From IMG/VR virus record IMGVR_UViG_3300045971_000149, positions 1-64,000 of that record: a stretch of 64,000 bases of DNA; one strand, 5' to 3'. Position 1 is the stretch's first letter. Every line of letters begins with the position of its first letter. The DNA is from a virus. The notes beneath the pieces were generated by a model, which had not been told where the DNA came from, did no database searches, and was given only the letters and a program-made list of their open reading frames with translations. Below are positions 51,665 through 63,549 of this stretch, piece by piece. Both the position numbers and the translations under genes were made by a program.

Positions 51665-51744
51665 GCTGTACTCCTTGTTGCGATGTATGTATTATAGTCT
51701 CATTCAACGGAACTGTCAACAACCCTATGATCCATAGGGTTATT

Positions 51745-52085
51745 GTGAATAGGTGCTGTTCGTTTGGACTCTTACCACAGTGTTTCCCGATATGGCTAAC
51801 CGGCGCGGTTGATCACCGCAAAGGACATAGACAGCTTAGTCCTACTGTTTACTTCTCGCCTGATCAGGACGACTAGTTAGTTAAGGCGTTTCGAGCGATG
51901 GAAGATTTTACACTGTCTTGCGACTGAAGTGACTCCGTCTTTCGATGCGCTGTATGGCACCGGCCCCACTACCTTATTGTAACATGCTCGGGGAATACTG
52001 GCCCATTGCCAATCACTAGATCGGGTGAACGTTCAAACCTAAACACATTACAATAAGGGCACTGTAGTTTCCTACAGTGCTGTAC
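51745..52085 (-). ncRNA. Candidate structured non-coding RNA
   Basis: No credible ORF; 9-bp GAAA hairpin, 15-bp long-range stem, GCAA tetraloop stem and further hairpins. Confidence 0.6.
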
Positions 52086-52089
52086 CTAC

Positions 52090-52359
52090 TTACAGTACAA
52101 AGCCCAAACGCTGGCCTTCTTCAGCGACAGCTTGCGCAACATCCAAATCGTCGCAAACCCAATCGCTGTTAAGCAAAGCGTCTACGCAATCTTCTTGTCG
52201 CTCTGCTTGCGCCAACTCAATAAAGCGCACGTCAGTGTGACCGTTACGCTCCAGCACACCCTTACGGCCTTTGCTGTTAGCATAGCGCACAGCAAACACG
52301 CCGTTTTGCTTGGAAACGCCGACGAAAGTAAAAGTGTTTGTGTTAATGTCTTTTGCCAT
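52090..52359 (-). CDS. Small early protein, paralogue of 63112-63549
   Basis: FTFVGVSKQNGVFAVRYAN...VLERNGHTD matches FSHAGVSKLNGEYKVRYAN...VLAKNGHVD. Confidence 0.8.
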   Translation of the reverse strand: MAKDINTNTFTFVGVSKQNGVFAVRYANSKGRKGVLERNGHTDVRFIELAQAERQEDCVDALLNSDWVCDDLDVAQAVAEEGQRLGFVL

Positions 52360-52443
52360 TTTTAACTCCTAGTGTGTTTGTGTATGTATGTATTATAACG
52401 CCGTTTTGCTTTACTGTCAACTACCCTATGCACTGTAGGGTTA

Positions 52444-55216: not shown

Positions 55217-55376
55217 TTCGTTCATCCTTTTTGTCTATGCGTTAATTATAGCAAGGTTTTACCAAAGCGTCAACACCTATTTCAAAGACCCTACAGGGTG
55301 ATGGGATAAATAAAAGTGCCGCTCGCGACACGCCAATGTCCAGCAGCTCTAACAGTTTATAAGGAACTAATCAGCA

Positions 55377-55727
55377 ATGTATTTACACTTCTATGTCTAC
55401 GCCTATCTGCGTATTGACGGCACACCCTACTACAAAGGCAATGGTGATCGAGCTTACGCAAAACACCGCATTCCTGTGCCAAAAGATCGATCGAGGATCG
55501 TGTTCCTTGAGACAAACCTAACTGATATCGGCGCATTGGCAATTGAGCGCAGACTGATTGCTTGGTACGGACGCAAGGACTTAGGCACAGGTATCTTGCG
55601 TAACCTTACAGACGGCGGCGAAGGTTCAAGTGGAGCAACTAGATCACAAGAAACTCGCGATAAAATATCAGCCGCAAAGAAAGGCATACCTGCTCATAAC
55701 AAAGGAAAAACGAGTAGGAAGAGTTAG
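55377..55727 (+). CDS. GIY-YIG/NUMOD3 homing endonuclease-like protein, probably defective
   Basis: [49 protein letters not shown]; the IG of the YIG motif is missing. Confidence 0.8.
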
Positions 55728-63111: not shown

Positions 63112-63549
63112 TTAAACCAATGCTTCGCCAACGGCCTTAAGTGCTTCGTCGTCGGTAAGCTTCTTCTTAATAACTGCCTTTGCTTCGGCGATAGTCACGA
63201 GCGGGCCAGTAGGGCCTTCAACTGCGGGCAGCTTAGCCTTAACAGCTTTAGTCTTTGCAGGAGCTTCCTTCTTGGGCTTGTCTTTGGATGCAGCTTTAGG
63301 AGCGGGTTCGGAACGCTTGTCAACTTCAGCTTCCAATGCAGCACGGATCTCTGCTTTGCCGTTGTCAAAGTCAATGCCGATCAAATATGCAACTGCATCT
63401 TCCTTGGACATTGGGTGTTTCAATTCCACGATATCAATATCAACGTGGCCGTTCTTTGCAAGCACCTTAACGCGCATTGCGTCATTGGCATAGCGAACTT
63501 TGTATTCGCCGTTCAGTTTAGATACGCCAGCATGTGAAAAAGTAGTCAT
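63112..63549 (-). CDS. Conserved early protein with Lys/Ala-rich tail
   Basis: AGVSKLNGEYKVRYAND; own promoter/RBS. Confidence 0.8.
   Translation of the reverse strand: MTTFSHAGVSKLNGEYKVRYANDAMRVKVLAKNGHVDIDIVELKHPMSKEDAVAYLIGIDFDNGKAEIRAALEAEVDKRSEPAPKAASKDKPKKEAPAKTKAVKAKLPAVEGPTGPLVTIAEAKAVIKKKLTDDEALKAVGEALV

Follow-up and report, generated by a model that had tools for sequence, protein, structure and literature searches.

Results

The stretch of DNA analysed here, referred to as the window, comprises the first 64 kb (64,000 nucleotides) of an IMG/VR virus record of 157,925 bp (G000), which CheckV places at 44% completeness. The tail sheath protein of this record is 42% identical to those of jumbo myoviruses, e.g., Agrobacterium phage Atu_ph07 and Pseudomonas phage PA5oct, and the source is a fragment of a freshwater jumbo myovirus. 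On its minus strand, 26 sigma-70 promoter units that are nearly identical (TTGACA-17-TATAATACATA) occur between 51.4 and 68.1 kb, each of which is arranged in the order promoter, leader, Shine-Dalgarno (SD) sequence and one to three small ORFs. A tRNA-Met gene stands at the head of this array (68350-68424, minus strand), and one plus-strand ORF (window positions ~55372-55720) is embedded in what is otherwise a one-directional array. Beyond the window, at 143210-143285 of the record, ARAGORN reports a tRNA with the anticodon CUA, labelled tRNA-Pyl, which is of the amber-suppressor type.

Within the array, a gene-free stretch of 345 bases lies 3′ of an early minus-strand gene of 89 amino acids (aa), between the stop codon of this gene and the promoter of the next cassette at 51683-51719 (Table 1). 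An earlier note on this DNA had described it as the largest ORF-free stretch in the array, which is correct save for one longer gap of 407 bp at 68.1-68.5 kb; on a rough ORF/SD map, that gap holds the tRNA-Met gene and a divergent promoter. Stop codons break all six frames of the 345 bases, and the longest ORF has 30 aa and is truncated in the related locus L066. A 30-aa GTG frame in the 3′ domain was considered as a small gene, and the indels of the relatives are multiples of three, but a stop in L066 cuts the frame and the candidate was rejected. No promoter was found inside the stretch on either strand. Therefore, the RNA is the read-through 3′ part of the transcript of the upstream gene and not, as had been proposed, a cassette of its own; the promoter of the 89-aa gene would drive this gene and, through read-through, the RNA.

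Table 1. Features of the window locus, make-up of the corresponding region in relatives, and copies of the R2-type hairpin.
Feature	Position	Strand	Description
Sigma-70-type promoter	52384..52420	minus	TTGACA-17-TATAAT then ACATACAT; 12/12 consensus match; one of the 26
89-aa early gene	52090..52359	minus	ORF; precedes the RNA locus in all relatives carrying the RNA
P1	52059..52080	minus	9-bp hairpin GCACUGUAG-GAAA-CUACAGUGC then CCUUAUUGUA; terminator-like (consensus scan)
Long-stem module D1	51972..52058	minus	Unbroken 18-bp closing stem around a 51-nt branched interior
Type-I 3′ domain	51745..51971	minus	Multibranch; closed by GGUGC (51957-51961) and GCACC (51752-51756)
Unit end	51683..51745	minus	CCC-N11-GGG dyad hairpin (AACCCUAUG-GAU-CAUAGGGUU) and promoter of the next cassette
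L066-70			P1, three long-stem modules (A, B, C) and type-I domain
L072-74			P1, one module of the window's type and a shortened type-I domain
L084			P1, module B and the start of type I
L085			P1, modules A′ and C and a different 3′ domain (type II)
L077, L086			P1, one module and type II
L075, L095, L096			P1 and one module, nothing more
L078, L079-81			Ordinary terminator only, no RNA
R2-type copies	L107-L121, e.g., L109:7628-7713 (minus), L113:9515-9599, L117:11842-11925; also L091:1386-1471, L077:513-602		

The earlier note had treated the stretch as a single RNA of ~340 nt. Instead, three parts make it up: a terminator-like hairpin (P1), a long-stem module that can be swapped and, distinct from both, a 3′ domain of ~225 nt. 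P1, which the note had already pointed out and which is present in the minus-strand sequence, has G-C at five of its nine base pairs, a 4-nt loop and a U-rich tail (CCTTATTGTA); it thus has the GC-rich hairpin and U-rich tract of a predicted intrinsic terminator. P1 is kept in all relatives (GGCACUG..CAGUGCC type), and it abuts the stem of the module with zero spacer. This stem had been noticed as well, with a length of 15 bp, which becomes 18 bp when G.U pairs are counted: the arms at 52041-52058 and 51972-51989 form 14 Watson-Crick and four G.U pairs, and no other stem of its size on the same strand of the 158-kb record has at least 14 Watson-Crick pairs.

The fold of the type-I domain was obtained with RNAalifold on the window, L066 and L072. 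Its hairpins lie at ~51886-51950, 51851-51877, 51822-51843, 51805-51819, 51778-51802 and 51765-51777, the last with the loop UAAGAGU. The smaller elements that had been read from the sequence by eye, namely CACU/AGUG with GUC-GCAA-GAC, GGAC/GUCC, GCGGU/ACCGC and the closing pair GGUGC/GCACC, are all present and were recovered both by the minimum free energy fold and by RNAalifold with the two relatives. The folding energy of the stretch is -113.7 kcal/mol compared with -94.8 +/- 6.2 for shuffled controls (z -3.06), and none of the 100 shuffles folded as well. The opposite strand also folds (z -3.99). Because it does so equally well, the folding energy alone cannot pick the strand.

Searches at the DNA level returned no relatives of the RNA. 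A blastn search with the RNAs of the window and L066 against 50,697 phage records gave no match; nhmmer and blastn against 44 loci of relatives of the downstream AAA-type gene gave chance 13-17-mers only; and exact-pattern scans for motifs of type I, module B and module C gave none in viral, metagenome and genome contigs. Therefore, relatives were sought through the neighbouring proteins. Single-protein searches with the two flanking small genes found none. The downstream AAA-type gene led to locus L002 (74% identity) in G001, a relative of 353 kb that is 99% complete. Behind a paralogue of the 89-aa gene, this locus has a 260-nt ORF-free stretch (L002:4640-4898) that is unrelated in sequence and alike in layout, with a GAAA-loop hairpin, a perfect stem of 22 bp and a multibranch domain closed by 15 bp (z -7.1).

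The 89-aa protein itself has 13 relatives (49-92% identity), and the contigs that encode them contain ten independent versions of the downstream region. At least seven lineages have the layout of a terminator-like hairpin, one to three modules with an unbroken stem of 17-22 bp, and usually a 3′ domain of ~130-230 nt. The make-up differs across the relatives (Table 1), and the locus is therefore a composite whose units have been swapped, added and lost. L083 was left out as an assembly chimera (an ENA contig), since an Illumina adapter (AGATCGGAAGAGCGTCGTGTAGGGAAAGAGTGT) occurs at L083:634-686, ~50 nt past the stop of the gene. A covariance model of the type-I domain (R1) matches the window at 51744-51977 and elsewhere only L066, L072 and L084, and no further copy was found in 96 loci, G000 or G001. 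The distribution is narrow and covers one clade of freshwater jumbo phages.

The 89-aa protein has no Pfam or PHROG match. Its AF2 model is confident (pLDDT 90), with three strands, the last of which is long, and three helices. An RNA-binding fold was considered for this protein and dropped, as even the confident model has no PDB fold match at E ≤ 0.001. The protein belongs to a family of 89-145 aa that includes a paralogue at 63115-63549 (minus strand) and shares the conserved pattern FVGVS..NG..VRYAN..R..VL.RNGH, and each genome has two or three paralogues. A strict linkage between the RNA and this gene fails, for no RNA is found at the closer paralogue in L002, nor in L078 and L079-81. In L051, three hairpin-flanked copies of GGAUUGCUCC, one of which is GAUUUGCUCC, precede a strong terminator (L051:2940-3100); these repeats sit downstream of a paralogous gene and a small membrane-protein ORF. 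Tiny promoter-driven units with the common block CGAACA(A/G)AGGGGGAUGGACG were also observed at L002:5590-5680 and in L079-L081, ~45-140 nt past the stop of the gene. Either a small RNA or a very short ORF (MDG.. or MDV..) may account for this block, and a similar block, GGGATGGACGGCGA, has been noted in the genome studied here.

Comparison of the relatives provides the evidence for a real RNA and for its strand. In every module, the closing stem is unbroken and 17-22 bp long, and the enclosed interior, of 30-76 nt, is branched and conserved. The stems are maintained by compensatory changes, which affect six pairs in module B, where the loops UUCUAGAUAAGUU and GUUCGAAA are conserved, three in module C, and three in the family of the window's own module D, which has homologous modules in L072, L077 and L086. 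Homologues, which the earlier note had proposed to search for, were found by way of the neighbouring proteins, and they show these compensatory changes. Transition mismatches in the long stems of the window locus and its relatives were counted with both kinds allowed, and 15 G.U pairs were found against one A.C (binomial p = 5e-4, with pairs that are not fully independent of one another). A DNA palindrome should decay symmetrically; therefore, this imbalance argues for selection on the RNA of the gene strand. The broken frames, the compensatory stems and the excess of G.U pairs agree with the earlier description of the minus-strand product as a structured RNA that codes for no protein, and we consider it highly probable that a functional structured RNA is encoded there.

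The same comparison bears on the proposal that the locus is a feature of the DNA, i.e., that its long stems are MITE-like palindromic mobile elements, comparable to Correia and ERIC, or scars of cassette shuffling, and that the RNA fold is a by-product. The number of modules (0, 1, 2 or 3) and their identity vary among close relatives, many arms begin with CCTTA and end with TAAGG in the manner of terminal inverted repeats, the array resembles shuffling PeSL cassettes (PMC2839356, PMC4122927), and the strength of the fold on the opposite strand would also be expected. However, palindrome decay would not leave so asymmetric a set of mismatches, nor does it account for loops that are conserved over stems that covary. 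Moreover, a MITE-like repeat would be expected to occur in many dispersed copies and in both orientations, whereas the module is single-copy in the 158-kb record and all copies lie on the transcribed strand. Because the element is single-copy and strand-specific, it is not MITE-like, and we regard the DNA-level explanation as very unlikely.

The sequence of the type-I domain is conserved to an unusual degree relative to its surroundings. Its first ~110 nt (the 5′ half) differ between the window and L066 or L072 by four to five substitutions outside one variable hairpin tip, and in the 3′ half, 111 of 112 positions are identical between the window and L066. For comparison, identity amounts to 78-83% in the adjacent 89-aa gene, to 59-67% at the third codon positions of this gene and to 56-69% in the promoter region upstream. 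Such similarity of the domain could stem from recent recombination between phages and not from purifying selection; the locus is a mosaic, and recombination therefore does happen. Among the 52 predicted pairs of the type-I fold, three have double changes and several are broken in L072. Because the domain is represented by three full sequences and one fragment, and so few pairs show double changes, the detailed fold is provisional.

At first sight, a stretch of this kind might also be a decayed former gene cassette whose structure is incidental, and part of the 5′ region of type I is indeed loosely similar to the leader of a cassette (CAUACA..CAUCG..GGAG). Junk sequence should nevertheless not be more conserved than the coding gene beside it, and it should not retain its stems by compensatory changes. 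In addition, the analogous region of L002 folds far better than chance (see z above), and no frame is conserved. Decay is in our opinion scarcely credible as an explanation.

No match to Rfam 15 was found at the gathering threshold in the whole window, and at E ≤ 10 the window region and its relatives gave only noise, which upholds the initial impression that the RNA belongs to no Rfam family. A CRISPR-DR6 match (E 6.1) was treated as chance. The RNA might still be a strongly diverged form of a known stable RNA, such as tmRNA, RNase P RNA, or a Y RNA or tRNA mimic. Modules B and C of the relatives contain T-loop-like hairpins (GUUCGAAA; GGG-UUCGAUU-CCC), and the module in L088 described below has a canonical T-arm. 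The best match within the tRNA clan was a weak one to tRNA-Sec, confined to module C of L085 (20 bits against a threshold of 47; E 1.3). The 8-nt hairpin loop GGUAAGAG of type I may resemble the T-loop found at J12/13 in bacterial RNase P RNA. Furthermore, phage Y RNAs that mimic tRNA do exist (PMC4201824).

Other results speak against a known class. ARAGORN reported no tRNA or tmRNA in the window, L001, L002, L066, L072 and L075, and ARAGORN -m and the Rfam tmRNA models were negative; a tmRNA would combine a tRNA-like domain (T-arm and acceptor end) with a conserved tag frame that has a resume codon and a stop, but after UAGUCG both the frame and its stop vary among the window, L066 and L072. 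For bacterial RNase P RNA, whose hallmark is a P4 helix with the CR-I and CR-V sequences, there was no Rfam match at E ≤ 10. These results agree with the earlier note, which did not recognise the RNA as any of these three. YrlA RNAs are encoded on the strand of a Ro60 (TROVE) gene, no more than ~4 kb away from it, and carry the motif GNCGAAN0-1G near their 5′ end (PMC4201824), and conserved hairpins resembling the T- and D-arms also belong to their definition. Neither a TROVE/Ro60 nor an RtcB gene occurs in G000 (44% complete) or G001 (99%), the motif is absent (the window has AUCGAAAG and CUCGAAAC), no Rfam YrlA match was obtained, and T-like hairpins occur only in the modules of relatives, the window's own module having no T-loop. 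That the locus encodes a diverged known RNA is consequently most improbable.

Similar modules occur in three other settings in related phages, which suggest that such modules are expressed. In L056 and L060, a P1-like hairpin and a module with a 19-bp stem are followed directly by the SD sequence and start codon of the next gene. No promoter lies between the module and that gene, and these modules must therefore be transcribed through. In L064, a 104-nt module with a 16-bp stem (L064:613-716; z -4.0) has its own TTGACA-17-TATAAT promoter. It is the sole content of its cassette (L064:573-760), which has no ORF before the next promoter.

In G001, which has ~45 tRNA genes, long-stem modules abut some of these genes. 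One of them is a tRNA look-alike (L088:1398-1500, minus strand; ~347.05-347.16 kb of G001) that follows two tRNA genes without a gap and starts at a tRNA CCA. Its 'acceptor' stem is 19 bp long, a 7-bp hairpin with a loop of 4 nt replaces the anticodon arm, and its T-arm is canonical (CAGG-UUCGAAU-CCUG). Another module, in L091, lies just before a tRNA cluster, and its core, GUAAGUGACU..GAYAUCGACC, is that of the type-II domain. An exact-pattern scan for this core returned 15 IMG/VR loci, nearly all within tRNA clusters. The alignment of 14 distinct copies gives a long, irregular hairpin, both sides of which have changed at 15 of the 26 pairs, and the model built from those copies (R2) matches L077 (E 4e-9) and L085 (E 2e-6) as well as L091. 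Membership was defined by the closing stem together with the invariant core; the window's RNA lacks this combination, and R2 gave no match in the window or L102, a short resemblance (GUAAGAGUCCAAACGAAC) being all that was seen.

The R2-type hairpin has ~85 nt, with an invariant core GUAAGUGACU.GG..C.GAUAUCGACC and a covarying closing stem of 15-20 bp. In 14 distinct contigs of jumbo phages, it is found within a tRNA cluster or at the edge of one, and in many cases its first nucleotides adjoin the preceding tRNA at the CCA. It has no Rfam match and looks like an undescribed RNA family.

Discussion

The stretch behind the 89-aa gene is a real, conserved, unclassified and modular phage RNA locus. 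RNAs of this kind were known before, as processed stable RNAs with phage tRNAs and as RNase III stalks; the place and the sequences are new.

We lean towards the reading that the non-coding 3′ portion of an early transcript is formed by this stretch, a composite structured RNA from which RNase III releases small RNAs. According to this model, RNA polymerase starting at the promoter of the 89-aa gene, or further upstream, would partly read through P1. The U-rich tail of P1, which in every variant serves as the 5′ arm of the module stem, would then pair with the A-rich downstream arm, and a perfect duplex of 17-22 bp would stack on P1. The RNase III of the host could cut this duplex in the way that rRNA processing stalks and the sites between the genes of T7 early mRNAs are cut. 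The products would be an upstream mRNA that ends in P1 and, as discrete stable RNAs, the module interior and the ~225-nt 3′ domain, and these small RNAs may act early in infection.

Processing by RNase III is a reasonable supposition because the stems are perfect and 17-22 bp long. The length of its substrates, about two turns of uninterrupted duplex, is reached by the predicted stems of both the window (18 bp) and the relatives (17-22 bp). Judged from such stems, we consider the cleavage plausible, just short of probable. Neither G000 (44% complete) nor G001 encodes an RNase III or dsRBD protein. In addition, P1 looks like a competent terminator, and the RNA-less loci L078 and L079 have an ordinary one; therefore, the RNA downstream may be produced at a low level.

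An alternative explanation is that the element is purely a cis-acting device of the 3′ untranslated region, in which P1 and the long stem regulate how stable the neighbouring mRNAs are or how they are expressed, without any action in trans. In phage lambda, the RNase III site sib behind the terminator tI causes the retroregulation of int, and T7 early mRNAs carry stabilising RNase III hairpins. One publication (PMC5371410) reportedly mentions retroregulation by RNase III. The element has no promoter of its own and begins at the terminator-like hairpin of the gene. In every variant, the U-tract of this hairpin supplies one of the two arms of the long stem, as would be expected if only read-through transcripts form the duplex, and the 3′ arm in L056 and L060 reaches to the SD sequence of the next gene. 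However, a stability hairpin needs no sequence-conserved multibranch domain of ~225 nt, nor are conserved module loops over covarying stems needed for stability. Moreover, a similar module stands alone behind a promoter in L064, others lie in tRNA clusters far from any mRNA, and the gene has paralogues and orthologues that manage without the element. We therefore find a device acting solely in cis unlikely.

With regard to what the released RNAs would do, a role in trans must be called doubtful. A more far-reaching idea, to which we give little credence, is that small RNAs acting in trans, tRNA mimics among them, make up a toolkit that these phages shuffle, that type I is a new RNA with a complex fold, either an RNP scaffold or a catalytic RNA, and that such RNAs act on host tRNA or translation or as decoys against tRNA-targeting defence nucleases. 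If this idea were true, the RNAs would be freed from early and tRNA-cluster transcripts, and the swapping of modules would be the trace of an arms race. The roles of ribozyme, decoy or anti-defence RNA put forward in the earlier note were guesses, and nothing in the present analysis was found in their favour.

Phage non-coding RNAs are badly under-annotated, and this locus is a concrete and testable example. The comparative support for a real RNA consists of compensatory stems, a strand-specific excess of G.U pairs and a conservation above that of the neighbouring gene. The locus also links the hyperplastic early promoter-cassette arrays of large phages with the extra structured RNAs in phage tRNA clusters, since similar long-stem modules occur in both. 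Should the modules be cut out as stable RNAs, the cargo of early arrays would include RNA besides small proteins, and screens of such regions for host takeover or counter-defence would have to take RNA into account. Furthermore, the two covariance models, R1 for the type-I domain and R2 for the long-stem RNA of tRNA clusters (14 contigs), could seed new RNA families.

Comparison with known systems

In shape, the locus resembles the Y RNAs, in which a long stem formed by both ends of the RNA closes a branched domain, and modules B and C of the relatives and the L088 module share with them a T-arm-like hairpin. The window's RNA differs in that it has no accompanying Ro60/TROVE gene, no GNCGAAN0-1G motif and no T-loop in its module.

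In their use of long duplexes, the modules resemble the RNase III stalks of stable-RNA operons and the sites of T7, where such duplexes flank a functional RNA or separate cistrons. These systems share polycistronic transcripts and strong sigma-70 promoters with the present locus, in which the duplex has 17-22 bp, and the element of L056 and L060, placed between two co-transcribed genes, is T7-like in its position. However, a T7 site is a hairpin of ~60 nt that has a bubble inside it but lacks structured cargo, whereas the perfect stems described here enclose conserved branched interiors, are followed in the window by a domain of ~225 nt, and are putative cleavage sites.

The arrangement of P1 recalls that of lambda sib and tI, where a terminator hairpin 3′ of a gene joins a larger duplex only in read-through transcripts and the terminator tail is one arm of the stem. 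In contrast, sib is one short site without conserved cargo, and the present locus has two distinct helices, namely the hairpin and the long stem, that are stacked.

The tRNA cluster of phage T4 carries the stable RNAs species 1 and 2 (rnaC, rnaD). The window's RNA differs from these in that it lies behind an early protein gene and not in a tRNA cluster, and in that it has no sequence similarity to the RNAs of enterobacterial phages. The long-stem modules of its relatives, however, do abut tRNA genes, and T4 species 1 and 2 are likewise small structured RNAs, distinct from tRNA, that are co-located and presumably co-processed with phage tRNAs.

Finally, promoter-stem-loop (PeSL) cassettes mediate modular shuffling in T4-type phages (PMC2839356, PMC4122927). 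The likeness lies in a hyperplastic early region with repeated promoter and stem-loop units and small unrelated genes, and both arrays appear to evolve by shuffling. The difference is that PeSLs are the boundaries of cassettes, whereas here the cargo of a cassette is RNA and not protein.
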